A DNA stretch of 64,000 nt from a virus (IMGVR_UViG_3300014590_000001:192658-256657), one strand, 5' to 3'. Counted from the first letter of the stretch, positions 8,331-51,720 are shown. Numbers and translations: made by a program. Notes: generated by a model from the sequence alone, not told the origin.

Positions 8331-8350
8331 AGGGGCGAAAGCCCCTTTTT
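8328..8350. terminator. bidirectional intrinsic terminator
   Basis: aaaGGGGC-gaaa-GCCCCttttt between convergent genes. Confidence 0.85.
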
Positions 8351-8371
8351 CATTTCCAAAAACGAACGATG

Positions 8372-9031: not shown

Positions 9032-9135
9032 TTGGTTACTCCAACATTAAATTTTTCAGTAGGCACATCCGTGTGCAGAGGGTTTTATTTGGTCATGCTT
9101 ACATTAGCAAGATCAATTCATGATCGCTGAAAAAT

Positions 9136-19415: not shown

Positions 19416-20393
19416 ATGAAACATCGTACTGGTGAATATCTTGTTGTTCGCAGTGGCAACAAAAATGTTTTGGTTCTCGCAACTGGTAAAAGCGTTGGCT
19501 ATCTGGTCAACACTCTTGCAACTGCCGATCCAACTACAATCAAGTTCAGCGCGAAATACGATATCCTCGCCATCCTCGGAAAAGATCCTGAGCCTGGCCA
19601 AAAAGTTTTCGGTGTGAGCGTAACGCCGCACGTTGGACTGAAACAAATTGCAGGAATGCCCGCGCTCAATCTTTACGGACGTGAAGAACAAGTTGGTAAA
19701 GCTATTCGCATCGCGTGTAAAAAGTTTCCTGCGTTTGTTGAAAAGTATGGCGTTGCCGAAGCGCTGCGTCGTTGCAAACAGATTAACTTTAATCAGGTGA
19801 GCGGCGGTAGCAAAACGCATGACTTCAAAACGAAATTCCAGAAAGAAGAATGGAATGACGTGTTCAACATTTGCGTGACTAAGGATAGCTTGTCGCAAGA
19901 CGTTACCAACAATATGTTGCTGGCGCTCGGTGAATCTGTTTATCAGCATTTGGTTCCGACCAAACGCAAAATCAAATGGATTCTTTTGCTGAACAAATTG
20001 CGTAACGTTCAGAAACTTGATCAAGAAACTTTGATCGGTTTCCTCGACGACTTCATTAAAACTGGCGATGCAAAGGATGTGAAAAATTTAGTGTCGGAAG
20101 AACTTCTGCCGTTCACTGATATCATTCTGCGTAGCATTGCGCGTCAGCGTTTGATGACGGTGAAAGAACTTGAGTTGATTGCTCAAAACGACTCTGAGCA
20201 AATCGTTAAGTTCTGGCCCGCTGAATTGGAAGTCAGCGATGCTCGTCCTGATATTGAGAAGTCAGCTATGAAAAGTGCGCGAGCTTTATTTGCGTATTCA
20301 TTCTGCCGATTTGTTCAGGGTGTGGATCTCGGTAAAACTCTAAACAAACAGGTGCGCCTTACTGTTAAGGAGTTTCGCGGGGATGTTGAGTGA
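19416..20393 (+). CDS. hypothetical protein
   Basis: ATG at 19416 after AAGGA, ~325 aa. Confidence 0.75.
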   Translation: MKHRTGEYLVVRSGNKNVLVLATGKSVGYLVNTLATADPTTIKFSAKYDILAILGKDPEPGQKVFGVSVTPHVGLKQIAGMPALNLYGREEQVGKAIRIACKKFPAFVEKYGVAEALRRCKQINFNQVSGGSKTHDFKTKFQKEEWNDVFNICVTKDSLSQDVTNNMLLALGESVYQHLVPTKRKIKWILLLNKLRNVQKLDQETLIGFLDDFIKTGDAKDVKNLVSEELLPFTDIILRSIARQRLMTVKELELIAQNDSEQIVKFWPAELEVSDARPDIEKSAMKSARALFAYSFCRFVQGVDLGKTLNKQVRLTVKEFRGDVE

Positions 20394-20715: not shown

Positions 20716-21290
20716 TGAAACTCGTTTTTGATTGGGATGATACTGCGCTGCTTACGCATCCTTACTACGTTAAAGTTCTGAAAGAAACTCACGGCGATGA
20801 TCTGCCGCTCGATCAGTATTTCACGAAAGACAACGGCGGCTCTGGTTTCCTCGGTCTGATGGAATCCGGTAGCTTCATGGATAAAGTTGAAATTCGCTCT
20901 GGCTTTATCGAAATGATTCGCCGTCTGGTTGCAGAAGGTCACGAAGTTTATTCGTGTTCGCATCGTGGTTATCATCGCATGGGTCACGTACTCACGCGTA
21001 AACTTTTCACCGAAGAAGAGTGGAATCTTTTCACTGAGCATTACTTCCTCGATCCGTTTGTTGCACCAAACAAAGTTGAGTTTCTGCAAGAAGTGTTCGA
21101 CGGCGAAGATTTTATTATCTTTGATGATCGACCTCACTTCACCTGCGAGCACAACGAAGAAGATGCTGAACATATTATTCTGTTTGATCAGCCGTGGAAC
21201 AAAGAACTTCCTTTCGACCGCGTGTTTGCATTCGACGAAAACTTTATTTCTGTTCTGGATAAGAAGTTGGAAATTTATTCTAATTTCTAA
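20715..21290 (+). CDS. HAD-family 5'(3')-deoxyribonucleotidase-like phosphatase
   Basis: VFDWDDT (DxD motif I), CSHR, NK, IIFDDRP and FDQPWN. Confidence 0.8.
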   Translation: MKLVFDWDDTALLTHPYYVKVLKETHGDDLPLDQYFTKDNGGSGFLGLMESGSFMDKVEIRSGFIEMIRRLVAEGHEVYSCSHRGYHRMGHVLTRKLFTEEEWNLFTEHYFLDPFVAPNKVEFLQEVFDGEDFIIFDDRPHFTCEHNEEDAEHIILFDQPWNKELPFDRVFAFDENFISVLDKKLEIYSNF

Positions 21291-21292
21291 TC

Positions 21293-21569
21293 TCGCACCG
21301 CAAGAAAAAAGTTTCGTTGTGGTACGGCGAGCTTGCATATGTGCGTTTACACGGAGCGCACAACATGGCAGTAAGACTCGCCAAGTGCCTATCACGCTAA
21401 GGCACTTTAATCTGCGTGGGGGTTTGTTCGGAGGTTCCGACAGCTTACGGGCAAACTCCAAAGCGACTAACAAAAAGTTTCTTTGGAGTTTGTCCAAAAC
21501 TAAAATGATGAAATAAGATTTAACTTTACCCTGGAGGGAACCGAAGACGACGCGGTTCCCTTTTTTTTT
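21293..21569 (+). ncRNA. candidate structured non-coding RNA
   Basis: Intergenic, with at least five stems, a CTAATTT motif just upstream and a terminator at the 3' end. Confidence 0.5.
21535..21569 (+). terminator. intrinsic terminator
   Basis: AGGGAACCG...CGGTTCCCT followed by a T run. Confidence 0.85.
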
Positions 21570-21574
21570 GATCC

Positions 21575-21585
21575 AAATCTGTAAA
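21575..21585 (+). promoter_or_regulatory. AAATCTGTAAA class 1 promoter motif
   Basis: Exact copy upstream of the dnaX-like gene. Confidence 0.7.
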
Positions 21586-21623
21586 TTCCATGTATACAAT
21601 CAATCCGGTATGGAACTGAAAGA

Positions 21624-22888: not shown

Positions 22889-22896
22889 AGTAATTT
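22889..22896 (+). promoter_or_regulatory. AGTAATTT class 2 promoter motif
   Basis: Heads a cluster of tagged proteins. Confidence 0.5.
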
Positions 22897-22931: not shown

Positions 22932-23408
22932 ATGCAAATCGTCTTATCTCTTTCTAAAGTTTCGGAGGAACTGCTCTGGACAACTTATTCTGAGCATTTA
23001 AATCCTATCGAACTGAAGCATATCTGCAAGAAGATTTTTGGTAATAATGTTGATTGCCGAAAGTCTCCTATCGGAATTCTGAAGTCTCGCACAAGCGAAC
23101 TGAAGTTTGTTCCGTCAGGTGACGAGGGTGTTGTTTGCATTTTCAACGACAAGACCTTTAAACAGGCATCCGACTTTATGAACGCGATGAAGCCTGTTCC
23201 GGTACGCACTCCTTTCGGCGCAGGGGATTTCTATCTCTCGTTTGAATCCGAAGGCCGCAAACTTGCCTATCTCGTATGGAGCAAGATGAAAGATCAGTTA
23301 GTTTATTTTCCGGATGTTAGCGCACTCGAAGAATACTATTCTACGCTCGGAGTTTCTCCAGGCGTTGATCGCATGAAGTCGTACCCAAGCCGGAGAATCT
23401 TCGGCTAA
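22932..23408 (+). CDS. hypothetical protein with MQIVLSLS tag
   Basis: ATG at 22932 and shared N-terminal tag. Confidence 0.7.
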   Translation: MQIVLSLSKVSEELLWTTYSEHLNPIELKHICKKIFGNNVDCRKSPIGILKSRTSELKFVPSGDEGVVCIFNDKTFKQASDFMNAMKPVPVRTPFGAGDFYLSFESEGRKLAYLVWSKMKDQLVYFPDVSALEEYYSTLGVSPGVDRMKSYPSRRIFG

Positions 23409-23490
23409 TAAGGAGGTGATCCCTATCTCTTCTTTACTGCCAAGAAGTAAAACTTCGGCGGGAGGTACGTTGTGCCGAAATCTATTTTCC

Positions 23491-23514
23491 AAAGGCGGGA
23501 GCAATCCCGCTTTT
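23491..23514 (+). terminator. intrinsic terminator/hairpin
   Basis: GCGGGA-gcaa-TCCCGC-tttt. Confidence 0.7.
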
Positions 23515-23531
23515 CTTATAGGAACTGAATC

Positions 23532-24209
23532 ATGGAAATTTTAATCAGTTTGTCGAAAGCTGTTTCGGCATTTTCAGAAAAAGATCGAGCGGCTTTCGAC
23601 AAATGGTTTGGAAAGTCCGTTGTAAAAGATCCTCAAGGCAATCCGCTTGTTGTGTATCACGGCACAACAGGAGACTTTGATACGTTTGATAAAAAACGTT
23701 TGAGCGCCGGTAACGATGAATACGGCATCGGATTTTATTTCACTGACTCACCTGAGTTTGCGCAATACTATGCCAAGAATAGCGGCAGTACGCTTCCAGT
23801 GTATTTGAAAATCCAGAAGCCGATCATTTTTGAAAAGCAACCGCGCATGACTCTTATGCAAGCAACAAGAATTGCAAACGGATTAACTCGTCCTCACTTC
23901 AATCGCTTCCTTGCTGAAAACTACGATCTCGATTATCAAGGTTTGGCAAGCGCGAAACAAGAATATCTGGAAAACTTCGTCGGCATGGATCTGATCGACG
24001 CAGGGAACAACCTGTTCCAAGATATTTATAAAGGTGAGCCTGAACAGTGGCGCTTCTCTGAAGTGTTCGCTGCTGCAACCGGAAGGGATGGCATCATTGC
24101 AAAACGTGGACAGCATTTCTTCTACGTTGTGTTTAGTCCTACGCAAATCAAATCGGCAGTAGGAAACAAAGGTACGTTTAAACCGCGCACCGAAAACATT
24201 CTGGAGTAA
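23532..24209 (+). CDS. ADP-ribosyltransferase-like (polyvalent-protein ART type) protein with MEILISLS tag
   Basis: PLVVYHGT..DF..F, G.GFYFT...A..YA, PVYL.I.KP, G.DGII and YVVFSPTQIKSA.GN.GTF. Confidence 0.7.
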   Translation: MEILISLSKAVSAFSEKDRAAFDKWFGKSVVKDPQGNPLVVYHGTTGDFDTFDKKRLSAGNDEYGIGFYFTDSPEFAQYYAKNSGSTLPVYLKIQKPIIFEKQPRMTLMQATRIANGLTRPHFNRFLAENYDLDYQGLASAKQEYLENFVGMDLIDAGNNLFQDIYKGEPEQWRFSEVFAAATGRDGIIAKRGQHFFYVVFSPTQIKSAVGNKGTFKPRTENILE

Positions 24210-24212
24210 GCT

Positions 24213-24647
24213 ATGGAAATTCTAATCAGTCTTAGCAAGATGGTTAGCCCGTTGCCGAAACAAAAAGTTGTTTTGCAGAATGCGAAAAGCAATGAAGAGA
24301 AAGCAAAGCGCAGTGTTAAGCTGGCGCAAGATACTCTTCAGCAACGACAACAGGAAAACCGGAATGTTGATGGTGCCAAAAAAGAATTGGGAATCCGTAA
24401 TAAGATACGTCGTCGCGCAACCGAAGTAGTAAGAACGCAGCAACAACGTACCGGACGTGCCGCCACCGTTGATCGCCTTATTGCAGAACTCGAACGTCTG
24501 GAGAAAGTTGAAGACAACGAGACTAACAAAAAGACGAACGAAGAACGCCGCACGAAATTGCGTGAACAGATTGCAGAAGCACGTAAGGCAATGCAGAAAA
24601 TCAAATTGCCTAAATCTACAATCAAGCGCAAGAAACGTCGTTACTAA
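24213..24647 (+). CDS. basic coiled-coil protein with MEILISLS tag
   Basis: R/K/Q-rich, with shared tag. Confidence 0.75.
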   Translation: MEILISLSKMVSPLPKQKVVLQNAKSNEEKAKRSVKLAQDTLQQRQQENRNVDGAKKELGIRNKIRRRATEVVRTQQQRTGRAATVDRLIAELERLEKVEDNETNKKTNEERRTKLREQIAEARKAMQKIKLPKSTIKRKKRRY

Positions 24648-24656
24648 GGAATCACT

Positions 24657-24890
24657 ATGCAAATTTATGTGTCGCTTTCCAGCGCCCCGAATCTCGCGCA
24701 GCAAAGTTGGGATTATACTTTTCTTTGTTACGTAGATGAAACAGCACGTAAATGGCCAGCCGACTTAGGCGCATATGGCGAACGCTATATGAAACTTCTG
24801 AAAGAAAAACTTCGACTCGAAGCCGTGACGGGGCCATTTCTTTTTGACGGCTATTACGACAAAGATCAATTCTTCACGGAACTTCCGTAA
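24657..24890 (+). CDS. small protein with MQIYVSLSSA tag
   Basis: AAGGA SD and shared tag. Confidence 0.7.
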   Translation: MQIYVSLSSAPNLAQQSWDYTFLCYVDETARKWPADLGAYGERYMKLLKEKLRLEAVTGPFLFDGYYDKDQFFTELP

Positions 24891-24895
24891 CTTTG

Positions 24896-24919
24896 AGGGT
24901 GGCTTAGGCTGCCCTTTTT
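24896..24919 (+). terminator. intrinsic terminator (GGGTGGC/GCTGCCC family)
   Basis: agggtggc-ttag-gctgcccttttt. Confidence 0.85.
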
Positions 24920-24926
24920 AACGCCC

Positions 24927-24937
24927 AAATCTGTAAA
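24927..24937 (+). promoter_or_regulatory. AAATCTGTAAA class 1 promoter motif
   Basis: Exact copy upstream of the SbcC operon. Confidence 0.7.
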
Positions 24938-24976
24938 AAGATGAATATAGGTTTAAACTTAACTAAGGTATTCATT

Positions 24977-25177
24977 ATGTTTGCATATGCTCGCCCTACT
25001 CCATGTTTCCATATTTGCCGTCACGCTCTGGATATCAATCCGTACACCAATGAACCTGAAACACAAAAAGAAATCGTTGGTCAGGTGTTCGCGCATCCGG
25101 AAAAGGAATTGGAAAAACTTTCGAAAGATTATCCGAACGATAGTCTATGGTTTGAACCTGCTGATGTTTGGATGTAA
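24977..25177 (+). CDS. small hypothetical protein
   Basis: ATG at 24977 after AAGGT. Confidence 0.55.
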   Translation: MFAYARPTPCFHICRHALDINPYTNEPETQKEIVGQVFAHPEKELEKLSKDYPNDSLWFEPADVWM

Positions 25178-25179
25178 CT

Positions 25180-27480
25180 ATGCCTGGGATTTCTCTCAAA
25201 TCAATTGAACTCAATAACGTTGTGGTGTTCAAAGAATTAAAGCTGACTGAACTTGATCAGCAAGGATTCGTAACTATCTCCGGTTACAACCACGACAGCC
25301 CAAACGTTCGCAACAATAAAAACGGTGTGGGAAAAAGTCTGATGTTTGGTTCGCTTCCAAATTTATTTTATGAAGCAGATCCGCTTGCGCTTACCAAACG
25401 CAGCAAAACAAATATGCTGAAGAAAGGAAGTTCAATCTCACTTGAGTGGCAATCTCCTTTAGGTCAGATGATCAAAATTGAACAGACGGCAAGTAAGTAT
25501 AAAGTTTCTTTGGACGGCGAAGACCAAAAGGTTGAGCGTCAGGACGTAGCGAAGACGTGGATTAAAAAACATTTCCCGCTTTCGCAAGACGAGTTTTATT
25601 CGTACTGCTATATTCAAACGCAGATCGCACATCCGTTCCAACGTGCGAAACCTTCTGAGCGTCTGAAATATTTGACTGAACTGTTTGGCCTCGATGTTTA
25701 TGATCGTATTCGTAGCGCAGTCAAAATCAAACTGGATGCTGCGAAAGACGCAGAGAAAGAAAGCAAAGGCGTTGCCGATCTTTACGACGTTACTGCACGT
25801 AAGCAGGACTCTCTGAAGGTAACAGACAAGACGCGCAAGAAAGCTAAGAAGCTGGAGAAAGAAAGCGATGCACTTAAAGAGCAACGCAACGATCTTTATG
25901 AACGTTTTGCTGAACTGACTTCTGAGCGCAAGGACGCTCGCCGCTACTACGAAATCATGGCAGAGATTTCTGCTCTGAAGATTGTGTCTGAGAATCCGAA
26001 GAAGGAACTGGAAAAACTTAATGCGGTGTTAAAGCGTATTGAGAAATTCGAAGACTATCAGGAAGCGCTGAAGAAATATAAAAAGCGTTTGGCTGAATTC
26101 AAAGCGCAGTTGAAAGAACTTCCGGAATCTGAAGCAGATCCTAAAGCACTCTCAAAGAAACATTCTAAGCTGGTTTCCGAAGAGGAAGAGATTGAAGAAC
26201 TGCTTGAAAGTTTGGATGAAGAGATCGAGGCGTACACCGAATGGAAAGACGATATCAAACGTTTGACCAAAGCACTCGGTAAATTGAAGAAGCCGAAGAA
26301 AACTTCTGAAGAACTGGAGGAAGCATTTACTGAAGCGCAGTCGGTTGTACGCGCTTACGAAAAACTTTCTCACAAGGTTGACGGCAAGACTTGTCCTACG
26401 TGCGGTCAGGACGTGAATCTCAAAGCGCTGAAACGTGCTGCTGATAAAGCTGAAGAAGAGATCAAAAGTCTGCGCAAGCAACAAGAGTATTTCGATTGCA
26501 AAGAAGAATTGAAAGAACTCGAAGGGAAGAAAGTTAAGAAGCCTAAGCACGACAAAGAAGAGTTGCAAAAACGTTTGAAGAAGATCGGCAAGCAGATTGA
26601 TGCTATCGCTGATGAATTCGAAACGATTAAAAAACGTGATGCAATTCAGGCCAAGCTGGATGCTCTGGAGAAGCCGGAAGAAGTTGCTGAACCGAAGAAG
26701 CCGTGTAAGAACGTTGAAAAACGTATCGAGCAACTGGAACAACTTCGCGATCTTAATCAGTCACTGAAAGCATTCAAGCGTCCGTCTAAGTCGGCGCAGG
26801 AAATTGATGAAGAGTATCACGCAGTCGATAAGAAGATTAAAAAGCTCACCTCAAGTATCGGTGAACTTGAGCGTGAAATGCAGAAAGTGATTTCGAAAGT
26901 TCAGGAGTACGATCATTACGAAGACACGTTAGTTGAAATGCGCACAAAACTTTCTAAGTTGCAGCCATTGATTGACAAGCGTGTGTTGTACGAAACACTT
27001 TATAAAGCGTACAGTGGCACGGAATTAAAACTGAAAGCAATGGAAGGACGCTTGCAGTTAATTCAAGACAAGCTGAATGAGAACAGTCATTTGGTTTACC
27101 CTGAGAATATGAAGTTCAATCTATTCACTTGTCCTCAAGGCGTTGGTGCAACTGTTACTCGCGTGTCGTCGGATACCACAACCGATATCAGTATTATGAG
27201 CGGCGCAGAAACTAACTGCTTCCGTTTGTTGTGGGCGATCAGTATTCTTCCGTTTGTGCCTGAATCTCGTCGTACTGACTTCATGATTCTGGATGAACCT
27301 GAATCGAACTGTAGTGATGCCGTTCGTGATCACTTAATCGAAAACTTCCTGCCCATTCTCACAAAGATTGTTCCAAACGTTTATTGGATCTCTCCATTGA
27401 GTGTTGATAGTTTCAGTGACAAGCAATGGATAGTTGAGAAGACAAAGGGCGTTTCCAAACTTGTTAGAAAGGAAATGTAA
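25180..27480 (+). CDS. SbcC/Rad50/gp46-like SMC ATPase
   Basis: Walker A NGVGKS, coiled coils, zinc hook CPTCGQ, signature MSGAE and Walker B ILDEPE. Confidence 0.9.
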   Translation: MPGISLKSIELNNVVVFKELKLTELDQQGFVTISGYNHDSPNVRNNKNGVGKSLMFGSLPNLFYEADPLALTKRSKTNMLKKGSSISLEWQSPLGQMIKIEQTASKYKVSLDGEDQKVERQDVAKTWIKKHFPLSQDEFYSYCYIQTQIAHPFQRAKPSERLKYLTELFGLDVYDRIRSAVKIKLDAAKDAEKESKGVADLYDVTARKQDSLKVTDKTRKKAKKLEKESDALKEQRNDLYERFAELTSERKDARRYYEIMAEISALKIVSENPKKELEKLNAVLKRIEKFEDYQEALKKYKKRLAEFKAQLKELPESEADPKALSKKHSKLVSEEEEIEELLESLDEEIEAYTEWKDDIKRLTKALGKLKKPKKTSEELEEAFTEAQSVVRAYEKLSHKVDGKTCPTCGQDVNLKALKRAADKAEEEIKSLRKQQEYFDCKEELKELEGKKVKKPKHDKEELQKRLKKIGKQIDAIADEFETIKKRDAIQAKLDALEKPEEVAEPKKPCKNVEKRIEQLEQLRDLNQSLKAFKRPSKSAQEIDEEYHAVDKKIKKLTSSIGELEREMQKVISKVQEYDHYEDTLVEMRTKLSKLQPLIDKRVLYETLYKAYSGTELKLKAMEGRLQLIQDKLNENSHLVYPENMKFNLFTCPQGVGATVTRVSSDTTTDISIMSGAETNCFRLLWAISILPFVPESRRTDFMILDEPESNCSDAVRDHLIENFLPILTKIVPNVYWISPLSVDSFSDKQWIVEKTKGVSKLVRKEM

Positions 27481-27773
27481 TGTCCAGTATCGATCAACTT
27501 TGTGAAAGCGCTTATTTGTTTAACGGCTATCGTTTGATTGAAGACGCCACAATGACGCAAAACAAATTTGTTCCTATCGAACGTAACTGGTTTATGCGTA
27601 TCGTTGCGAAAGTTTTCAGACTCAAGAAAGAAACGGTAGTGGTTGAGCCGCTGCCCACTTTCTACTTGTGCCATGACTGCATCATCGCGCATCCGGAAAA
27701 CATCAAACGAATTCGTGATGCCGTTGAACAAAGTAAGAAGAGTTTCAAAACTTCTTCGGTAACTGTTTATTAG
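27480..27773 (+). CDS. hypothetical protein
   Basis: TAATG coupling to SbcC. Confidence 0.7.
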   Translation: MSSIDQLCESAYLFNGYRLIEDATMTQNKFVPIERNWFMRIVAKVFRLKKETVVVEPLPTFYLCHDCIIAHPENIKRIRDAVEQSKKSFKTSSVTVY

Positions 27774-27783
27774 TGAGGAACGT

Positions 27784-28497
27784 ATGCCAGTAGTAGCGGT
27801 TACGAAACAAAGCCCTGAGCAAGTTCTCGGTTGGTTGAAGCAAGAAGATCCTGATGTTCGTGTGACTTACTGCCCTCAAGGAATCGCACTCGATCCGGAT
27901 AAGAAATATCGCAAACATATTTTCGTGATTGGAACGAAAGAGTTCGACCGAAACGCGGTGAGCATTCGCCAAATGCCTCAACACATTTTCTTTGTGTTTG
28001 GTCATAGCGTTCTTCTGGAAAAGTACGGTCTGGAAGTTGATAAGCGAGTTCAGGAACTTGAACCTATTCGTCCGAAGTTGGTTCCGGTTGGATCTTATTT
28101 GAAAGATCTGAAACATCGTGCGATTGAGGGAAGTCTGTTCTATGATTTAATGACTTTCATTTATACGATGCCAAGTAAGACGCACCAGAAACCAATCACC
28201 AGTTTGATTTGCAAATGGATTTACACCGGATGCAAAACAGATATTCGCGAGGATATTGAAGCTCTGGATTTACGCATTAGCAATAGCAACATGGCAAAGC
28301 TAATCTCTATTCTGGAAAAACCTGTTACCTATCGTTTGCGTGATGCTTTTATTGATTTGAATAAAGGCGTTTGTTCTACGATGGGTCAGGCAGTAATAAA
28401 ACATCGTGTTCAGGTTTTCGAATTGGGCTACATCAAAGGTAACGTTGAGAAAATCGCAAACGTCACCGATGAACTAGTTTCCAATCGGGGGATCTAA
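27784..28497 (+). CDS. hypothetical protein
   Basis: 237-aa ORF with GAGG SD. Confidence 0.75.
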   Translation: MPVVAVTKQSPEQVLGWLKQEDPDVRVTYCPQGIALDPDKKYRKHIFVIGTKEFDRNAVSIRQMPQHIFFVFGHSVLLEKYGLEVDKRVQELEPIRPKLVPVGSYLKDLKHRAIEGSLFYDLMTFIYTMPSKTHQKPITSLICKWIYTGCKTDIREDIEALDLRISNSNMAKLISILEKPVTYRLRDAFIDLNKGVCSTMGQAVIKHRVQVFELGYIKGNVEKIANVTDELVSNRGI

Positions 28498-28507
28498 ATT
28501 TTAATAC

Positions 28508-28533
28508 AAAGGGTGGCTTCGGCTGCCCTTTTT
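28508..28533 (+). terminator. intrinsic terminator (GGGTGGC/GCTGCCC family)
   Basis: aaagggtggc-ttcg-gctgcccttttt. Confidence 0.85.
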
Positions 28534-28543
28534 CATTTCTAAT

Positions 28544-28552
28544 GCTAATTTT
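28544..28552 (+). promoter_or_regulatory. GCTAATTTT class 2 promoter motif
   Basis: Upstream of the lysozyme and tagged-protein operon. Confidence 0.5.
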
Positions 28553-28581
28553 TATCGTGTATAGCTTATTGGAGAATTCAA

Positions 28582-29151
28582 ATGATTAACGCATTAAGTA
28601 CGCGAGCAATCATTGAAGTCATCGAACGTGAAGGTGGCTCAAAATATACGAACCGTGCTGCCGACCGTGGTGGCCCGACTCGTTGGGGAGTCACTGAAAA
28701 AACTGCTCGTGCGTATGGGTATACAGGCAGTATGGAAACCTTACCTCAAGAAGTTGCGATTGAAATTTTCCGCAAAAACTTTTGGGATTTCTGCAAGTGC
28801 GATCAGCTCGCTAAATTCAGCGAAGAACTTGCTGTATGGGTTTTCGATTTTGCCGTTAACTCTTCACCTGCAAACGCAATTGCTCCGCTGCAAGGTCTGC
28901 TTAATGTTCTGAATGATCGTCAGAAACTTTATCCGGACTTTGCACCTGCCGCGAACATCGGGCCAAAAACTATTGCTGCGCTTGAGTCGTATTCGAAAGT
29001 GCGCGACGTGAAAATTCTTGCGCGTGTATATAACGGTCTGCGTCTGTCATTCCTTTATAACATCGCTGCCAAAGATGAATCACAAGAATCCAACGTGTAC
29101 GGTTGGTTCAATCGTGTCGTTAATATTACTGCTAACGTGGGCGTGAAGTAA
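28582..29151 (+). CDS. glycoside hydrolase family 108 lysozyme (endolysin-like) with C-terminal PG-binding region
   Basis: EGG..Y.N...DRGGPT.WGVT, FDFAVNS, IGPKT and GWFNR. Confidence 0.88.
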   Translation: MINALSTRAIIEVIEREGGSKYTNRAADRGGPTRWGVTEKTARAYGYTGSMETLPQEVAIEIFRKNFWDFCKCDQLAKFSEELAVWVFDFAVNSSPANAIAPLQGLLNVLNDRQKLYPDFAPAANIGPKTIAALESYSKVRDVKILARVYNGLRLSFLYNIAAKDESQESNVYGWFNRVVNITANVGVK

Positions 29152-29177
29152 CGCCAAATATATTACAGGAAAATAAA

Positions 29178-30044
29178 ATGAAAGTAAGTTTAGATCTTTC
29201 TGGCGCTGCTGTTTCTACTTCTGCCCCGAAAGCAAAAATCAACGCCAAACTCATTACCTCTAAAGGTGAGCGTGTTCTGGTATTCCGCTCTGGCATGAAG
29301 CCTGTTATCGCTACTGTAATGTCGAACCTGAAAACCATCAAACAGAAAGTTGGTGCTCTGGTTAAAGCTGAACACGACGAACATAGCGCAGACGTTGCTA
29401 TGGGTCAGGCCAAAGATCCGGCACGTAAGAAACTGCTCAAAGATAAAAAGAAAACTTCGGGCACTACTGCTAAAAATCTTCGCGCAGAAATGAAAAAGCT
29501 GTACAGCGATTCTCATGCCCTGCTGCGTAAAAATAATCTGTCCAGCGTTTCTCTGCCGATCATTCAACGTGATCTGGAAGGTAACGCCAAGAGTATTAAG
29601 TCAGATCTGGATCGTCTGGATTTGAAGAAACTGCGCTTTAAAAATCTGCATAGTATTCCTGGCCATCGCGATCCGGATTACACGCCGAAATTTATGGCTG
29701 ACGAAAAGTTTGAAGCTCTGGAAGCGGCACCTACCAAACTGCGCTCGGTTAAAAAGCCTGAAACAGTTGGACGTAAACGCGTGAAACCTTCAGGACGCAC
29801 TGCCGATTCAAAAGGTAAGGCGATTTCTCCTGCAACTGTTATCAAACGTTTGGGTGAAGCCTTTGGTGAAAAATTCACTGCAAGCCAATTGAAAGCCTAC
29901 TCGATTGTTGAATCGAATGATGGTGGTCTGATTATGGTTCCGCCAACTGGTAAGAAATTGAAAATGTCTCGCGCCAAACTCGCTAAGTTCAACGTAACTC
30001 CTGCTGATGCTGAGTCTCTGAAACCTACCCGCCGTGTGCGTTAA
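29178..30044 (+). CDS. basic probable virion protein (tag variant MKVSLDLS..VSTSA)
   Basis: K-rich, strongly biased codon use, similar layout to the next gene. Confidence 0.7.
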   Translation: MKVSLDLSGAAVSTSAPKAKINAKLITSKGERVLVFRSGMKPVIATVMSNLKTIKQKVGALVKAEHDEHSADVAMGQAKDPARKKLLKDKKKTSGTTAKNLRAEMKKLYSDSHALLRKNNLSSVSLPIIQRDLEGNAKSIKSDLDRLDLKKLRFKNLHSIPGHRDPDYTPKFMADEKFEALEAAPTKLRSVKKPETVGRKRVKPSGRTADSKGKAISPATVIKRLGEAFGEKFTASQLKAYSIVESNDGGLIMVPPTGKKLKMSRAKLAKFNVTPADAESLKPTRRVR

Positions 30045-30062
30045 TATTTAAGGGAAACCAAA

Positions 30063-31034
30063 ATGAAATTGATGATTAATCTTGCAGAAGAAACTTCTTC
30101 TCTGTCTGCTGCTAAAACCCCAAAGTTCAAAATCACCAAAGTTGGCGCAAAGAAATCTCTGACGGTTGCTAAGTCTGCTTCCCGTGATTTCAAGAAAGCT
30201 CTCGGCCTTGCAGCTAAGGCACATAAAGGCGTTGGCGTTCTGCAAAAGCAACGTGCAAATCTGGAAAACGCGCAGGAAAAACTTTCCAAAGCAACTGCGA
30301 TGAACAAAGATCATATGCGCGGTCTGGTGAAAACTGCAAAAGGTAAAATTGCAGACACCAAAAAACTGATCAAGCAGTATAACTCTGAAGCGTCAAAACT
30401 TCTGAAATCGAACTTCGGTTTGGCTATCACTGTTCCGTTCTCCACTGAAGATCTGTGCTCACCAACGAAAGCAAAATCTGCGAAGATGAAAACTTTCGAA
30501 GGTCTGAAAGTTAAGGGCATGTCTGGTTTTGTTAAGACCATCGTTTCTGTGAAAGACGATGTTATCACTGGCAAAACTGTGAAAGAAGTGAAGAACAAAG
30601 ACGGCTCTACTCGCAAGTCTGGTTTCAAATCTCTGGACGAAATCGAAGACAGCATGGTATCAACTCCGGCTAGTCGCCGCCGTCGCGAAGATTCAAAAAT
30701 TCGCAGCAACGCAGAAGCAAAGAAACGTACTAAAGCTCGCGTAGAGGACGCGCGTAAGATTGCCGCCAAAGTTGAAAAACAGATGCCTAAGATTCTCGAT
30801 GACGTAGGCATTACTTTTGACCAGACCAAAAAATCTGGCAAACTGATGTATAACATTCAGGGCGAACGCAAAACCTCCGTGGGTAAAAATAACATCGTAA
30901 TGACCGAAATGCAGATGCACTTGGAAGATAAAAAGATTCCAGTGACTAAGCTGAAAAACGGATTCGAGATCCCCGGTATTATTCGCTTTACGCGAGGCGA
31001 AAATGGCGTGACGTTCAAACGTCTGGATAAATAA
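30063..31034 (+). CDS. basic probable virion protein (tag variant MKLMINLA..SSLSA)
   Basis: K-rich, probable paralogue of 29178 (K.Y.S....LL..N......P). Confidence 0.7.
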   Translation: MKLMINLAEETSSLSAAKTPKFKITKVGAKKSLTVAKSASRDFKKALGLAAKAHKGVGVLQKQRANLENAQEKLSKATAMNKDHMRGLVKTAKGKIADTKKLIKQYNSEASKLLKSNFGLAITVPFSTEDLCSPTKAKSAKMKTFEGLKVKGMSGFVKTIVSVKDDVITGKTVKEVKNKDGSTRKSGFKSLDEIEDSMVSTPASRRRREDSKIRSNAEAKKRTKARVEDARKIAAKVEKQMPKILDDVGITFDQTKKSGKLMYNIQGERKTSVGKNNIVMTEMQMHLEDKKIPVTKLKNGFEIPGIIRFTRGENGVTFKRLDK

Positions 31035-31057
31035 TCACTGCTCAGTGTGAGGCACAA

Positions 31058-31624
31058 ATGGAAATTTTTATTTCCCTTTCAGCGAACCTGTCTGATCGCG
31101 CCTTGCAAGAAGTTTTGAACCGTGGAAAACTTGATGTTCGCGTTGTTGCTTCCCGTAAGATCAGCAACACGCTTTATCTTTTCGCATATATAAATGCAGA
31201 CGGCGATTACGTTGTCTGCCGCGCTACTCTGTCACAAGCTGGACTTGTAGCGAATAAATTTGTGCTGCGTAAAGTTGAACCTCTTTCTACGGAAGAAACT
31301 CTTTGGCACGTAGATAAGGCTTTCGATAAATTTGATAGCGCTGGCAAAAGTCTTTCCGCTCCTCCCCCTCTCTGCTCGTTCATCTATCCGCTTTCTGATT
31401 TCGGTATCGAAAAAACTCCAGACTTAGATGACATTCTTCGTGATTGGAAATTGAAGTTTGAAATTGCAATTCCTCTCAAGTGGGTTGGTGTAGATTGGAG
31501 TGCGGAGAAAATTGAAATCCGCATGGAAGATCCATCGTGTCAGGATCAACGTCCTGTACTCGGCACGAAAGATGCGGTGTTCGATTGCCTGCAAAACTAT
31601 TTCAGATACAGAGGAAAATGTTGA
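31058..31624 (+). CDS. hypothetical protein with MEIFISLSA tag
   Basis: GAGG SD and shared tag. Confidence 0.75.
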   Translation: MEIFISLSANLSDRALQEVLNRGKLDVRVVASRKISNTLYLFAYINADGDYVVCRATLSQAGLVANKFVLRKVEPLSTEETLWHVDKAFDKFDSAGKSLSAPPPLCSFIYPLSDFGIEKTPDLDDILRDWKLKFEIAIPLKWVGVDWSAEKIEIRMEDPSCQDQRPVLGTKDAVFDCLQNYFRYRGKC

Positions 31625-31989
31625 TGTGGACTTATCATATTTCAACTGGCGTAATGCTGGATAAAAACGGCAAGCAAGTTGCAAAAGGCTACAGCGGTAA
31701 AGGCGCTCACAAAAACGTTGTTGCAGATACGCATATCGTTAATGAAGGGCCACTGCCGATTGGCATTTATAAAATCAATGCGCCGCGCACCAGTGCGAAG
31801 ACCGGACCATACGCGATGGATCTTACGCCTGATGCAAACAATAAAATGTTTGGTCGCGGAAGTTTCCAGATTCACGGTGACAGTGTTAAAAATCCTGGGA
31901 CTGCTTCCAGTGGTTGCATTATTATGCCGCGCAACATTCGTGAACTGATCTGGAACAGCAACGATCACTCTATCGAAGTTAAAGCGTAA
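31624..31989 (+). CDS. Tlde1/DUF2778-like L,D-transpeptidase-fold protein
   Basis: GYSG...GPLP.G.Y.I...GR..FQIHGD......ASSGCI (HxxxxSxGC catalytic motif). ATG at 31624. Confidence 0.8.
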   Translation: MWTYHISTGVMLDKNGKQVAKGYSGKGAHKNVVADTHIVNEGPLPIGIYKINAPRTSAKTGPYAMDLTPDANNKMFGRGSFQIHGDSVKNPGTASSGCIIMPRNIRELIWNSNDHSIEVKA

Positions 31990-32000
31990 GGAGATTCGCA

Positions 32001-33785
32001 ATGGAAATCGAAGTAAGTCTAAGCGCATTGACTCCTTCGCAGTACAGGCCATTCATGAAAATGTTTAAGCCTGATCCGCAACTGCTGAAACTGTTTCAGA
32101 AAATAAGCGGTCGTATCGGAAATCGTGCAATGCGTTTGTACTTCGATTTTCAAAGCGACAAGCTGCTTAAAAACTTTGCGCCCGAATGCCCTTCAGAGAT
32201 CAAAGATTATTTGGTTGAGAAGGGTTTTGTGCTTGAGGACTATGTTTCCGGAACGGCTCGCGATAAACATGATCGCGTTGTGCGTATCGGGAAGATTCTT
32301 TCCAAACAGCCTGAACTGGCTAAAACTTTTGAAACCGATCCAAACCGTAAAGCAATCGTGAGTGTTACGCGTGGCAAGAAAACTGTTTGCCTGAGTATGC
32401 ACCCATACGATATTGCTGGCATGAGTACAGGCCGTGGTTGGACAAGTTGTATGAATCTGGATGACGGCATAAATAAACAGTATGTGGCTGACGATATTAA
32501 GCATCACACTCTGGTTGCCTATCTGATCGATTCCTCGGACAAAGATTTGAAACGTCCTTTGTCTCGCGTACTGATTAAACGTTTTTACGCGATGAACAAA
32601 AAAGATTTCTTCTATCATGTTGAGCGCGTTTATCCGACTCCGAACGAACCGTTTATTTCTTCGGTTCAGGAATTCATTAACGAGCATATCAACAAACCGC
32701 TTATCGGCGATAAAGCGATGGAAGACGTTACGTATCGTCTGCATGAAGATCTGTATTCCGATACGAACACAAACATCTTCCCTGATTTGAGTATGAAAGA
32801 TTCAGATCCGGAACGTGTGAAAAATATTCTCGGAACATACTCTCCTACGCTTGTTCCAGATCAGCAATGGCCTATGCTTGCTCGTCGTTTTGGCGAAGAT
32901 TTATTTTCAATGGTGTTTACTGAAGCTCGCGTTGGCGAACCTGATAAGTTTAATAACTCCACTCTGGTTCTGTTCTGCGATGCAATGCGTGACGTTCTCT
33001 CCAAAGAGAAATTTGATCGCATGATGTTGAGTATGGGCGCGTACATGATGCGTACCAAACGAAACTATTTGGTTAACACTGTTTTCTATATGTCGCTCTA
33101 TTATCGCTCATATAGTTTCTTACGCTTGTGTGGGCGTACTCCTGAGATTGATGTTTTGATGCGAGACTTAGGACGAAACATTGGTGTACTGGAACCGCGT
33201 CTGCGTGATACTGATGCGCGTCTGCAATTCTTTGAAGACCTCGTTCCTCAAATGCACGAGTATATCAAAGACAGAGGATTGTTTATTCGATCCTTCGCTC
33301 TGCTGTGTGGTGAACTCACGCACTTTATGGAACTTGATAGTTTCGTCCACTACATTAAAAAGTTTGAGAAGTATATTGAGTTTGATACGGTTGTGGATTA
33401 TGCAAGTTACTTCAATCGTCCGGAACATAAACTCAAAGCGCTGGCGCTGGCATACGATACAGATCAGATCAAAGAAGTTAATATCGGAACGTTCATGTAT
33501 CGTGTTTATGAGAAAGAATTCTCTGACGGCATGAAACAGAAATTCTTTGCAGCAATGAACGAAGACGATATGCTTCAAGCGTGTCTGAAGTGGAGCCATG
33601 ATAAACGCTTCGAAGAAATGCTGAAAGCCAACGGCGAATCAATGGGCTTCAATTATTTCCGCGAACGTCATCGCGAATCAATGGTAACGTTCTATCCTAC
33701 TATTCGTCATAATGATCAGGCTGAATTCCTGTTCGTTGTTGCGGAGTCTCTGTTGGATACTGCCTATCAATTAACGGATCAATAA
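32001..33785 (+). CDS. tagged (MEIEVSLSA) protein, paralogue 1 with HPYD.AGMST.RGWTSCM domain
   Basis: N-terminal ~260 aa clearly homologous to the next ORF. Confidence 0.8.
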   Translation: MEIEVSLSALTPSQYRPFMKMFKPDPQLLKLFQKISGRIGNRAMRLYFDFQSDKLLKNFAPECPSEIKDYLVEKGFVLEDYVSGTARDKHDRVVRIGKILSKQPELAKTFETDPNRKAIVSVTRGKKTVCLSMHPYDIAGMSTGRGWTSCMNLDDGINKQYVADDIKHHTLVAYLIDSSDKDLKRPLSRVLIKRFYAMNKKDFFYHVERVYPTPNEPFISSVQEFINEHINKPLIGDKAMEDVTYRLHEDLYSDTNTNIFPDLSMKDSDPERVKNILGTYSPTLVPDQQWPMLARRFGEDLFSMVFTEARVGEPDKFNNSTLVLFCDAMRDVLSKEKFDRMMLSMGAYMMRTKRNYLVNTVFYMSLYYRSYSFLRLCGRTPEIDVLMRDLGRNIGVLEPRLRDTDARLQFFEDLVPQMHEYIKDRGLFIRSFALLCGELTHFMELDSFVHYIKKFEKYIEFDTVVDYASYFNRPEHKLKALALAYDTDQIKEVNIGTFMYRVYEKEFSDGMKQKFFAAMNEDDMLQACLKWSHDKRFEEMLKANGESMGFNYFRERHRESMVTFYPTIRHNDQAEFLFVVAESLLDTAYQLTDQ

Positions 33786-33786
33786 C

Positions 33787-35757
33787 ATGGAAATACTGGT
33801 AAGCCTTAGTGCGCTGCAACTTTCTCAATATCGCCAATACGCAAAGGGCTGGAAACCAGATCCGCAATTGCTGGAAATATTTGAGAAGCAATCCCACAAG
33901 CGCGGAAAGAAAGCGTTTCGAATTTATTTCGACTACGCCACGGATAAAGATATTCGAATTTCTGATGCACAAATTCCTTCGCAGATTACCGCGTTCCTTC
34001 AGCAAAATGGATATCAGCTTTTGGATTACGCCGCAGGTACAGTAAAGGATAAGCATGAACGTGTAACGCGTTTGGGTAAAGTTCTTTCTAAACAGCCTGA
34101 CCTGAAAAAACTTTTTGATAACGATGCAAATCGTCGTCAGATTGTTACAGCGTCCAAAGGAAATAAACTGGTGTGTTTAAGTATGCACCCGTATGACGTT
34201 GCAGGTATGAGTACGGATCGCGGCTGGACAAGTTGCATGAACTTAGTTTCTGGTTCAAACAAGCAATATGTTAAAGCTGATGTGGAAGCGAATACGCTTA
34301 TCGCCTATCTGATCAACGAAGACGATAAGAATATTAATGCACCGATCATGCGCGTGTTGTTGAAGAAATATTTTGCAACCTCTGGCGATTCGTACCGCTA
34401 TATTGCAGAAGTTGTCTATCCGGACGCCAAAGATAAAATGTTCCTGACGAAAGTTCAGGAGTGGGTTGATGAAAATATTAACACACAATCAGACAGGACT
34501 CGTACCACTACTGTAATGCGTAAATCTGCGCAGGTGTACAACGACGACAACTCTGATTACATTTTCACTAACCTCGGACAGCTTGGGGATAAAACTCTGG
34601 CGCAGGTTGAGAAAATTCTTGATGGCATTCTTGCGAAACTTCCGAGAGCCAGAACTAACAACTTCAATCCTGCTTCAATCGGCAAACTCTTTAAAACTTC
34701 ACCGCAAGCTATTCTTGCGAAAAATATTTCCAGATTCTCAATGCAGGTTGGAAAGATTTGGGCGAAGTCTATTCAGAGTAAACCAAATAAGTTGGAATTG
34801 GTTTCGAAAGTTTTTGCGGAGTTGGCTTCACGTCAAAACTCGTCACTCCCGGATCGTGTTCTTGGCGGTTTGGTTGCGGAGCGTGATTTCGATTCCTTGC
34901 GTGTAGCAGGTGAGTATATTGATCTGCCTGAGTTTATTCTTTCAGGTGCGCTTGATTCTGTAATTGGTAAATTGTATAACGATCCAGCTAAACCTCAAGC
35001 GGTGTTTGATGTTGCTTCCAATCTTGCGCAGCTAACGAATATACCTGATGAAACTTTCTGGCGCGTTCTCTCGCAGACTACTGATCTTGAAACGCTTGAG
35101 GATATTGAAGATCAATCAAGACGAGATAACATGTACGCGTCTTATGTTCCAGCGTTCAAAGCTATTTCGGAAATCCAATCACCGTTCACCACATTGAAGT
35201 CTTTGAAGAAAGCGAAGGAAACTATTCCTCGGCATGTAACTGAGATCTTTAAATTCTTCCTTAGTAAAAAGGATAAGAATTTAATTGAGTTCACACTCAA
35301 GGATTACGGAATCAGTGGCTACAAAGATCGCTACCGTTCGTGGGATGTAATTGACGAAGCATTAGAGGAAATGGAAAATCCTCCAGTGTTGAAAGTGGCA
35401 ACGATTTCTGCCCCGTCAGACACTCCCATCTATTTAGGTTTCGATGTACCAGTATCTAAAGAAGAAATTCTTTCTCTTGTTCAAAAGGCAATTGAAGATC
35501 CTTCTAACGGAGAAACGTATACCGAAACAATTCCGTATAAAAACTGTCGTGTAATTAACGATGGAAAAGATCTTCTGTTGGTTGATAGGCGCGGAAGAGA
35601 ACACGGTACGTTGACCGAAGCTCTGGAAGAAGATGATATCAGTGTTGAGTTTACTATTTACGAAGACGAGAAAACTCATATCCCGATGGTGAGATATGAG
35701 GGCGAAGAAGAAGAAGTTGAAAATGCAATTGATTCCGTGCGCTACTATGTGACTTAA
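33787..35757 (+). CDS. tagged (MEILVSLSA) protein, paralogue 2 with HPYD.AGMST.RGWTSCM domain
   Basis: Tandem paralogue with an unrelated C-terminus. Confidence 0.8.
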   Translation: MEILVSLSALQLSQYRQYAKGWKPDPQLLEIFEKQSHKRGKKAFRIYFDYATDKDIRISDAQIPSQITAFLQQNGYQLLDYAAGTVKDKHERVTRLGKVLSKQPDLKKLFDNDANRRQIVTASKGNKLVCLSMHPYDVAGMSTDRGWTSCMNLVSGSNKQYVKADVEANTLIAYLINEDDKNINAPIMRVLLKKYFATSGDSYRYIAEVVYPDAKDKMFLTKVQEWVDENINTQSDRTRTTTVMRKSAQVYNDDNSDYIFTNLGQLGDKTLAQVEKILDGILAKLPRARTNNFNPASIGKLFKTSPQAILAKNISRFSMQVGKIWAKSIQSKPNKLELVSKVFAELASRQNSSLPDRVLGGLVAERDFDSLRVAGEYIDLPEFILSGALDSVIGKLYNDPAKPQAVFDVASNLAQLTNIPDETFWRVLSQTTDLETLEDIEDQSRRDNMYASYVPAFKAISEIQSPFTTLKSLKKAKETIPRHVTEIFKFFLSKKDKNLIEFTLKDYGISGYKDRYRSWDVIDEALEEMENPPVLKVATISAPSDTPIYLGFDVPVSKEEILSLVQKAIEDPSNGETYTETIPYKNCRVINDGKDLLLVDRRGREHGTLTEALEEDDISVEFTIYEDEKTHIPMVRYEGEEEEVENAIDSVRYYVT

Positions 35758-42004: not shown

Positions 42005-42808
42005 ATGCAAACTACTATTAAACAGATTGATTCGATTTCTGCGAATCAGTGTGTCGTTCTCGTTCAGGTAACTCACGCTGCTGGCGAAGATATTTCTGAT
42101 AACTTTGCTGGCGTAGTTTCTGAATCAACTTCTCGCGAATTTGTTCCGGTCGCTGGCGCAACTGTAAATATTCAACAGGGGCGCACTCAGAGTTTCGTTC
42201 GCACTATCATGCAACGCGCTACTGACATTCTGCCTCTGGAAGACGCTCGCGAAATGCAAGCGCTGTCTGCAAACATGTATATGGATAAAGCCAAACGCAT
42301 GTGGGCTGTTCGTCATAGCGAAAGCGGTCAGGATATTCTTGTTCGCACTAGCGACATGAACGACACTCAAGAACTGATGGATATGATCCGTTCAGTTTCA
42401 AACGTGAATCCGGCTGGCATTCGCGGCACCAATCCAGACGTTGCTCGCGCAATGGATCGTTTCAATCTGGATCTGGCTGGCGCTCAGGGCGGCGACATGG
42501 TTAGCTATGTTTCCGAATCTGGCGAACTGCGTGTTGGTTTCGTTGTTGCTGAAGTTCAAGACGGCGAAAATCACGGCTTCTCAGTTGTTGATAAAGCTGG
42601 CAACGCTGAAGTGATTTCTTCCCTGTCTATGGTCTGCCTGTTAAACGGCGACGAGATCGAAGAACGTCATTTCCCTGAAATGGATTCTGTTTCCGCTGCT
42701 GGTAGCGCCACCGTTGAAAAACTGGTGAACTACTATCGTCAGGTGTTCAACTACTCGCCGGAGTATATGAGCAAGCTGGAAAACATTATCCGTAATCACG
42801 GCTTCTAA
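42005..42808 (+). CDS. probable abundant virion protein
   Basis: GGGAG SD, own promoter motif and terminator, optimal codons and internal ALSA/SVSA sites. Confidence 0.7.
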   Translation: MQTTIKQIDSISANQCVVLVQVTHAAGEDISDNFAGVVSESTSREFVPVAGATVNIQQGRTQSFVRTIMQRATDILPLEDAREMQALSANMYMDKAKRMWAVRHSESGQDILVRTSDMNDTQELMDMIRSVSNVNPAGIRGTNPDVARAMDRFNLDLAGAQGGDMVSYVSESGELRVGFVVAEVQDGENHGFSVVDKAGNAEVISSLSMVCLLNGDEIEERHFPEMDSVSAAGSATVEKLVNYYRQVFNYSPEYMSKLENIIRNHGF

Positions 42809-51186: not shown

Positions 51187-51720
51187 ATGCTTGGTGAATT
51201 TTATCAACAGATTCAAGTCATCATGACGTTCCTCGGATTTTATGACGGCGCGTGTGATGGTGTGTGGGGGCCGAAGTGCATCGCCGCTAAACGCAAGTGG
51301 GAATTCGATGATAGTTTTGAACCTGCTGTGCCGTCTAACGGCTTGCCTTTCACTGGTAAAGATCGTTTGCCGAAAGGTCTGATTTATTTGCATCGCGGAT
51401 TGCATATCAAGTGTCTGAAAATGACCAAAGAGGATATTGAAAAAATCCTGTGTGAGAAAGGTGAGTTGATTACTTGCGCTCACATTGATAAGCATTTCGC
51501 GCAGCCGGAACCTGAAGCGAAACCAACTGCGGTTGTTGCTGATGTTCCTGCGCCAAAAGTTTCCTCACTGGTTGAAACACCAATCGACGTGAAACCTGAA
51601 CCGGTAATTGATCCGGAACCGGAAGAAGTTGAAGAGGACGAAGAAGTTGTTGAGGAAGTTGAAACCAAAACTCAGCAACAGACTCAGAAAAATAACTGGA
51701 CTCAACAGAGGAAGAAATAA
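51187..51720 (+). CDS. protein with N-terminal peptidoglycan-binding-like motif and P/E-rich tail
   Basis: IQ..M..LGFY.G..DGVWGPKC..A...W resembles PG_binding_1. Confidence 0.6.
   Translation: MLGEFYQQIQVIMTFLGFYDGACDGVWGPKCIAAKRKWEFDDSFEPAVPSNGLPFTGKDRLPKGLIYLHRGLHIKCLKMTKEDIEKILCEKGELITCAHIDKHFAQPEPEAKPTAVVADVPAPKVSSLVETPIDVKPEPVIDPEPEEVEEDEEVVEEVETKTQQQTQKNNWTQQRKK

Follow-up and report, generated by a model that had tools for sequence, protein, structure and literature searches.

The stretch of DNA analyzed here (IMGVR_UViG_3300014590_000001:192658-256657; 64,000 nucleotides at its full length, referred to below as the window) comprises bases 192,658-256,657 of a phage record that is 256,657 bp in length and ends in direct terminal repeats. 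It contains two clusters of genes, one beginning at position 22932 and one spanning positions 29178-35757, whose protein products start with variants of the same short peptide (for example MEILISLS), which we refer to as the tag and discuss as a putative address for the phage head. Between positions 22000 and 36000 the window exhibited ~77% DNA identity to the Dickeya phages vB_DsoM_JA11, JA13, JA29 and JA33 of the genus Salmondvirus over 50-61% of the length, and the source is a Dickeya/Erwinia-type giant phage. The Erwinia phages Alexandra, Yoloswag and Y3, the Dickeya phage AD1 as well as the Pseudomonas phages Lu11 and PaBG belong to the same jumbo-phage group (PMC7412058).

Tagged genes and the form of the tag

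Within the window, ten proteins have tag-bearing starts in a short or a long form, and the rest of the genome adds another four (Table 1). The N-termini quoted in the sequence-only reading that had drawn attention to this peptide are all present, the one at 5787 on the minus strand, and every quoted start is preceded by an AGGA/GGAG-type ribosome-binding site 6-12 nucleotides (nt) upstream. The short tag occupies the eight to nine residues at the extreme N-terminus and follows the core M-[E/Q/K]-[I/V]-x-[I/V/L]-S-[L/V]-S-[A/K/S]; the long form consists of a φ-x-φ-x-L strand, a linker and then S-x-S-A. Position 8 of the tag was invariant, being Ser in this phage and Ala in both Lu11 and HRDY3, while position 9 was variable (A/K/S in this phage, G/S/T/A/K/C in Lu11). 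The tags contain no conserved Glu and exhibit no signal-peptide features, having no basic n-region and only ~5 hydrophobic residues.

With a position matrix built from eight tags, six N-termini scored above 20 and none of the 81,464 internal positions scored above 12. A loose regular expression matched 13 N-termini compared to 1.03 expected (Poisson P ~1e-10), with ~2 of these matches probably spurious. After the first 16 residues had been stripped, the sole remaining similarity was that of the 32001/33787 paralogue pair (E 1e-76), in agreement with the earlier claim that similarity ends right after the tag except in this pair. Ser6 and Ser8 were encoded by TCT, TCG, TCC, TCA, AGT and AGC, spanning both the TCN and AGY families, and Leu7 by CTT, CTA, TTG and TTA. 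Since serine and leucine codons are mixed at the tag, selection acts on the peptide and not on the DNA, and the tag is conserved at the peptide level, as had been proposed from the diversity at synonymous sites.

The earlier reading had further described a modular tag that loads diverse cargo into the head for injection. Its modularity is borne out by the comparisons given below, and the cargo indeed includes an ADP-ribosyltransferase (ART; PF18760), three very basic proteins (24213, 29178 and 30063; isoelectric point (pI) 10.2-10.8) that are probably DNA-binding, and, with a looser tag, a helicase-like protein; loading into the head and injection belong to the interpretation. Searches of Pfam, PHROGs, NCBIfam and Atlas returned no function for the 594- and 656-residue paralogues or for the 158-, 77- and 188-residue cargo proteins; the N-terminal 250-residue domain of the 32001 protein is widespread among giant phages. 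The clamp loader, SbcC, SbcD and DprA-like genes of the same stretch are without the tag. The claim that no replication enzyme carries it holds in this genome and fails in Lu11, where an annotated topoisomerase I is tagged. This Lu11 protein (gp203, putative topoisomerase I; 7481-9166) bears the Lu11 tag form MNVHIAVAAASA and has no orthologue in this phage; its PaBG counterpart gp84 starts MHTSLSAV and adjoins the virion protein gp83.

One further N-terminus, MNIGLNLTK at 24941, was considered as a tag and rejected, because its JA11 orthologue begins further downstream and a promoter-like box overlaps the start. Hypervariability of the tagged genes was likewise unsupported, as their identities to JA11 range from 44-90% versus a genome median of 69%. 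Three of ~14 tagged genes lack a JA11 match, compared to 9% of the other genes.

Both tagged clusters are headed by a promoter-like [CG]TAATTT box, which was also found 36-49 nt upstream of the tail-sheath and other structural genes. Of the earlier statement that most tagged genes lie in operons headed by a late-type motif, the box itself was found at both clusters; that it acts late is suggested by its being shared with structural genes. A distinct class of box, TCTGTAAA, precedes numerous genes at a distance of 37-79 nt from the start, among them the clamp loader, SbcD and DprA-like genes, and matches 'ATACTGTAAATA', a putative middle/late promoter according to the Lu11 annotation.

Table 1. 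Features of the window and of the remaining genome (aa, amino acids; numbering is that of the window unless marked as genome)
Position	Strand	Feature	Remarks
5362..5787	-	Tagged acidic protein MEILIALSA, 141 aa	35% Asp+Glu; orthologues MHVLISLGA (JA11), MEIYVSLSQ (Alexandra)
19416..20393	+	325-aa 'peptidase' (phrog_17197)	In replication module; no Pfam match
20716..21623		Gap in gene list (908 bp)	First two thirds: open reading frame homologous to JA11 gp193 (191 aa); last ~300 nt look non-coding, hairpin-rich, ending in terminator and TCTGTAAA box
22890..22896	+	[CG]TAATTT promoter-like box	Heads tagged cluster 1; 42 nt before 22932 start
22932..23408	+	Tagged protein MQIVLSLSK, 158 aa	Function unknown; phrog_31786; JA11 orthologue MQIVFSLSK
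23532..24209	+	Tagged ADP-ribosyltransferase MEILISLSK, 225 aa	PF18760 ART-PolyVal, E 1.8e-28; JA11 orthologue MELLISLSK
24213..24647	+	Tagged very basic protein MEILISLSK, 144 aa	pI 10.8; phrog_28362; orthologues MKILISLSV (Alexandra), MKILISLSA (Y3)
24657..24890	+	Tagged small protein MQIYVSLSS, 77 aa	JA11 orthologue MQILVSLSN
28545..28551	+	[CG]TAATTT promoter-like box	Heads endolysin gene and tagged cluster 2 (29178-35757); 37 nt before endolysin gene
28582..29151		Endolysin-like gene (GH108 + PG_binding_3)	Heads operon of tagged cluster 2
29178..30044	+	Basic protein with long tag MKVSLDLSGAAVSTSA, 288 aa	pI 10.3; weak homology to Alexandra/Y3 long-tag basic proteins
30063..31034	+	Basic protein with long tag MKLMINLAEETSSLSA, 323 aa	pI 10.2; JA11 homologue gp180
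31058..31624	+	Tagged protein MEIFISLSA, 188 aa	Function unknown; orthologues MEILVSISA (JA11), MEIFVSLAK (Alexandra)
31624..31989	+	121-aa protein, Tlde1/YkuD domain (L,D-transpeptidase-like, type VI secretion effector-type)	Untagged, inside tagged cluster 2
32001..33785	+	Tagged protein MEIEVSLSA, 594 aa	Homologues MRIQLAVAA (Lu11), MELQLALAA (HRDY3)
33787..35757	+	Tagged paralogue MEILVSLSA, 656 aa	Similar to 32001 protein over first ~260 residues; JA11 orthologue MKTVVSISA
42005..42808	+	Head-module protein, 267 aa	phrog_17573; invariant D-S-[VLI]-S-[AT]-A at residues 227-232 (17 homologues)
45303..51143	+	SNF2/helicase-like protein, 1946 aa	Loose tag MRIFSTSA; PF00176 + PF00271 (SNF2, helicase-C)
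51720..52031	+	103-aa protein	Loose tag MSTITLLSESA; S-E-S-A is the usual site form in Y3/Alexandra long tags
7187, 14978, 16665, 21578, 24930, 35767, 36392, 38356, 52082, 55466, 60317	+	TCTGTAAA boxes	
1257, 5604	-	TCTGTAAA boxes	
genome 21485-22264		Predicted head maturation protease, 259 aa	phrog_18299 (PHROGs); outside window
genome 23457-25388		Scaffold-like protein, 643 aa	Two CxxGC...CPxC zinc-ribbon-like repeats, ~130-residue Asp/Glu run, C-terminal domain; outside window
genome 31264		Tagged MLFFVSVSA	KMPT-N domain (PF20294); outside window
genome 85419		Tagged MQIEVALAAKEFTSLSA	Outside window
genome 94605-95057	-	Tagged MKTVISLSA	PF18760 match below Pfam threshold, E 3.4e-4; outside window
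genome 112788	-	Tagged MENFSAISA	Outside window

Tag versions in relatives, head proteins and head protease

Versions of the tag were also observed in the related phages. In JA11 it reads MxφxφS[LI]S with conservative changes (MQIVFSLSK, MELLISLSK, MQVLISLSK, MEILVSISA and MKTVVSISA), while the short tags of Alexandra and Y3 (MKILISLS, MEIFVSLS and MQ[VI]FVSLS) follow the consensus MxIFVSLS and their long tags end in S-E-S-A, S-T-S-A or S-V-S-A. In Lu11 the peptide MKIQLAVA, followed by G/S/T/A/K/C, is found on at least 12 neighbouring genes, and the loose pattern gave 21 matches compared to 2.9 expected. The HRDY3 tag is MEMxLALA, and PaBG contains only a few degenerate copies. Judged from these N-termini, the tag is clade-wide with lineage-specific versions, SLS in the Dickeya/Erwinia phages, AVA in Lu11 and ALA in HRDY3.

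Three comparisons of homologues bear on its modularity. The tagged protein encoded at genome position 94605 (MKTVISLSA-PQIYFHGT) and Lu11 gp211 (VKIQLAVAT-AKVYYHGT) are 57% identical throughout, with the tag alone re-coded. The 30063 protein carries the long tag, its JA11 homologue gp180 the short tag MKVILSLSA (31% identity, E 2e-8). In Agrobacterium phage Atu_ph07, the homologue of the 32001 protein consists of the domain without the tag and starts exactly where the tag ends. The tag is therefore a separable module.

A candidate for an enzyme that could remove the tag was found in the head module, ~1.2 kb upstream of the gene for the scaffold-like protein and 4 kb upstream of the capsid gene. 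Structure prediction from 38 homologues yielded a model with a mean predicted local distance difference test score (pLDDT) of 86.7, and among the 48,161 PDB representatives searched for similar folds the best match was T4 gp21 (5jbl_A; Z 10.0, root-mean-square deviation 2.8 Å over 137 residues), followed by the herpesvirus assemblins, namely the varicella-zoster virus (VZV), human cytomegalovirus (HCMV) and Kaposi's sarcoma-associated herpesvirus proteases (Z 6.4, 5.1 and 3.6). According to this model, the phage possesses a head protease that folds like T4 gp21. In the alignment of the family H123 and S180 were invariant and H207 nearly so, which makes them a candidate His/Ser/His set. The protease was detected only via PHROGs and its fold: the Pfam models for S77 (PF03420), S78, ClpP and S21 (PF00716) had no match in the genome, PF03420 and PF00716 not even at E <= 10, with the PF00716 negative being uninformative as its control rang nowhere. 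A phmmer search against PDB sequences likewise gave nothing informative for the protease, the 643-residue protein or the 325-residue 'peptidase'. Co-folding of the protease with the N-terminus (residues 1-40) of the 31058 protein scored 0.01, which has no bearing on binding either way.

Two other genes were considered as the head protease and rejected. The Atlas leads for the 325-residue 'peptidase' are Zn-metallopeptidase-like clusters (M90/ATLF), and the alignment of the 643-residue protein encoded upstream of the capsid gene exhibited a scaffold-like architecture. In relatives the latter is called 'ATPase' or 'ribosomal-like protein', an annotation that looks wrong.

The small-residue word at the end of the tag recurs at conserved sites in head proteins. 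At site 2 of the capsid protein (~residue 65-80) it reads VSES in this phage and JA11, STSA in Alexandra, VATA in Lu11, IATA in HRDY3 and AVAAA in PaBG. The scaffold-like protein has such sites at 380 and 621, with ES[EQ]SS compared to EATAS in the Lu11-type homologues. ES[EQ]SS lies just ahead of its conserved C-terminal tail, and F[DN]SLS[AT] is found where these homologues have φ-A-φ-A. In the 267-residue head-module protein encoded at 42005, the invariant word lies in a poorly ordered linker between a beta-rich N-terminal half and a conserved C-terminal helical tail, and the words aligned to it are VVATA in Lu11, IATAS in HRDY3 and AV-AA in PaBG; it is a candidate internal cleavage site. 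The AlphaFold2 model of this protein was poor (pLDDT 61.7), with no match in the PDB. Across the proteome, S-[LIVTEM]-S-A occurs 31 times compared to 11.5 in shuffled proteins, and the word in the head proteins switches between S and A in step with the type of tag.

The virion proteome table of PaBG lists 14 proteins and includes gp83, a protein of unknown function, and gp202, which corresponds to band 1 (PMC7412058). The N-terminus of gp83, MLIKINLLEAVAAK, is a long-form tag, and gp202, which starts with MGSLFTLNSLSAA, is the orthologue of the 45303 helicase-like protein. The tail/baseplate proteins in this table are without the tag, and the virion proteins gp257, gp261, gp263, gp81 and gp93 are untagged. 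Maturation reduces the mass of the PaBG capsid protein by ~20% (PMC7412058); AVAAA ends at residue 80 of 368 (21.7%), which fits this loss. Three PaBG proteins from the tail-fibre region (198038-198727, 198742-199263 and 203107-203913) share a different N-terminal motif, M-[TSI]-GLTR[IV]P-x-x-MI, which probably serves as a module for attachment and has no relation to the head tag.

Interpretation of the tag

We consider it fairly probable that the tag is a T4-like capsid-targeting sequence that is clipped off at a new Ser/Ala cutting word. In the proposed mechanism, varied cargo would be made late in infection with an amphipathic strand (φ-x-φ-x-φ) at its N-terminus, followed directly or after a short linker by the S-x-S word (A-x-A in the Lu11-type relatives). 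This cargo would comprise the ADP-ribosyltransferase, a second ART-like protein, the KMPT-N-domain protein, the very basic proteins and the two large paralogues, and probably also the giant SNF2-type helicase-like protein. The strand would dock each protein into the assembling prohead core, and the gp21-type head protease would cut after the second small residue of the tag, at a word on which it would also act in the N-terminal region of the capsid protein and in two further proteins, the scaffold-like protein and one other head protein. Once matured, the cargo would remain in the head and probably be delivered with the DNA. Packaging and cleavage, and with them docking, the exact position of the cut and injection, are the parts of this scheme that we infer. 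With regard to the cut, the sequence-only reading had suggested cleavage at S-x-S/A. Since position 8 never varies and position 9 does, a cut after the second Ser (S-x-S|x) appears more likely, and this pattern is the one expected at a P1/P1' boundary.

Several observations weigh against this reading. To our knowledge, every gp21-type protease of measured specificity cuts after Glu, and T4 gp21 does so at L/I-x-E. The SPN3US protease cuts at A-x-E (PMC10052503). Glu words (S-R-E, S-K-E, A-A-E and V-S-E) occur near capsid site 2, where a Glu-specific cut is possible; if the capsid is cut in this way the tags, without a conserved Glu, would stay uncleaved as docking strands. The switch from S to A parallels genome G+C, so that a common requirement for small residues, and not co-evolution with the protease, may lie behind it; the N-terminal S-x-S-F word of the protease itself remains S-type across all lineages. 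The short tag was unenriched in PaBG (7 matches compared to 3.3 expected), and a tag-like end was observed in only two of the 14 identified virion proteins. A literature search found no virion proteomics for Alexandravirus, Salmondvirus or fHe-Yen9-02, structural proteins are not marked as detected by mass spectrometry in the GenBank record of Y3, and the tagged genes do not evolve clearly faster than others.

The Glu preference would fit a tag that acts as a retained docking strand, for instance as a beta-strand added to a scaffold, portal or shell partner, with the protease keeping Glu at P1 and the likeness of the S-x-S words reflecting a preference for small residues. Measured gp21-type proteases all cut after Glu (PMC10052503), Glu words adjoin capsid site 2 while the tags have no conserved Glu, and what is known of PaBG gp83 and gp202 is their presence in virions. 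However, the invariant position 8 and free position 9 resemble a P1/P1' boundary, and in the scaffold-like and 42005 proteins the word is invariant in disordered linkers ahead of C-terminal tails, which are typical maturation sites, so that we regard retention of the tag as unlikely. More doubtful still is a tag that serves another purpose, be it a masking propeptide of toxic enzymes, a recognition tag for an AAA+ protease or chaperone, of host or phage, that times turnover, or a signal for sorting to another compartment. Even though several cargo proteins are potentially toxic enzymes (ART) and short N-terminal hydrophobic motifs can serve as degradation tags, the tag is also present on non-enzymatic basic and acidic proteins, tag-bearing proteins occur in PaBG virions, tagged and structural genes have a promoter box in common, and the features of a signal peptide are absent.

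We consider it highly improbable that the shared start is a nucleic-acid feature (an initiation enhancer, an mRNA structure or a recombination box) or a remnant of common gene ancestry. Codon 2 is mostly GAA/CAA/AAA and codon 3 mostly ATT/ATC, and these A/T-rich codons could favour initiation, but TCN as well as AGY serine codons and four Leu codons are used at invariant positions, and among relatives residues are replaced by similar amino acids. In addition, the change from SLS to AVA between lineages keeps the pattern, and the long variants part the strand from the S-x-S word. There is also no similarity past residue 16, the paralogue pair excepted.

Extended to the clade as a whole (Salmondvirus, Alexandravirus, Sasquatchvirus Y3, Lu11, HRDY3 and PaBG), the preferred reading of a clipped capsid-targeting tag would become a two-module address code, an amphipathic N-terminal strand plus S-x-S/A-x-A. 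Its reader would be a gp21-fold protease with a P1 specificity shifted from Glu to Ser/Ala, as in herpesviruses. This wider proposal is tentative, and we rate its chances as somewhat below even. As JA11, JA13, Alexandra, Y3, Lu11 and PaBG are in culture, the prediction is directly testable. If the tag works in this way, sequence alone would list proteins that are carried in the head and probably injected (ADP-ribosyltransferases, DNA-binding proteins and a giant SNF2-type helicase-like protein) and that would be the likeliest first actors against host defences, and the eight- to nine-residue tag would be usable for loading foreign proteins into heads.

Comparison with known systems

No paper describing this tag or capsid targeting in this jumbo clade was found in our literature search. 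Among other jumbo phages, SPN3US, phiKZ and 201phi2-1 remove propeptides from head and ejection proteins with gp245/gp175-type proteases that cut at A/S/G-x-E (PMC10052503, PMC7411985). Similar to the phage analyzed here, they are myoviruses of jumbo size that contain numerous internal head proteins, encode a gp21-like protease and remove propeptides from cargo as well as structural proteins. In contrast, their propeptides are individual, mostly 20-254 residues in length and have Glu at P1, whereas here one Glu-free tag of eight to nine residues is reused on at least a dozen proteins.

The herpesvirus assemblins (MEROPS S21; (V/L/I)-x-A|S) resemble the head protease in predicted fold (Z 6.4 for the VZV and 5.1 for the HCMV protease), in the small P1 and P1' residues, which are predicted here, and in having a site that immediately precedes a scaffold-like protein's C-terminal tail. 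The sequence families differ, however, and the specificity of the phage enzyme is only predicted; we know of no N-terminal cargo tag in herpesviruses. If the proposed cut is real, gp21-type head proteases would not be confined to cutting after Glu and the maturation codes of phages and herpesviruses would be linked. The Pfam families ART-PolyVal and KMPT-N are named after 'polyvalent proteins', which have been proposed to travel with phage DNA. In both cases these types of effector domain (PF18760 and PF20294) occur on proteins believed to accompany the DNA into the host, but here they are found on separate small proteins that each have their own tag instead of being fused into one giant polypeptide.

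As far as function can be judged from sequence, the closest known system would be the T4 capsid targeting sequence (CTS), which is carried by IPI, IPII, IPIII and Alt and removed by the prohead protease gp21, according to Mullaney & Black 1996 as cited in PMC10052503. Both are peptides of about ten residues at the extreme N-terminus of unrelated proteins, both accompany cargo that includes an ADP-ribosyltransferase and small basic proteins and that varies while the tag is kept, and both end in a word that recurs in head proteins of a phage encoding a protease with the gp21 fold, as predicted here. On the other hand, the tags (M-[EQK]-I-x-[IV]-S-L-S, without a terminal Glu) exhibit no similarity to MKTYQEFIAE and are not members of its sequence family, the predicted cut word is S-x-S/A-x-A compared to L/I-x-E, a two-part long form exists, and the phage is not T4-like, having no Pfam S77 match and scattered head genes.

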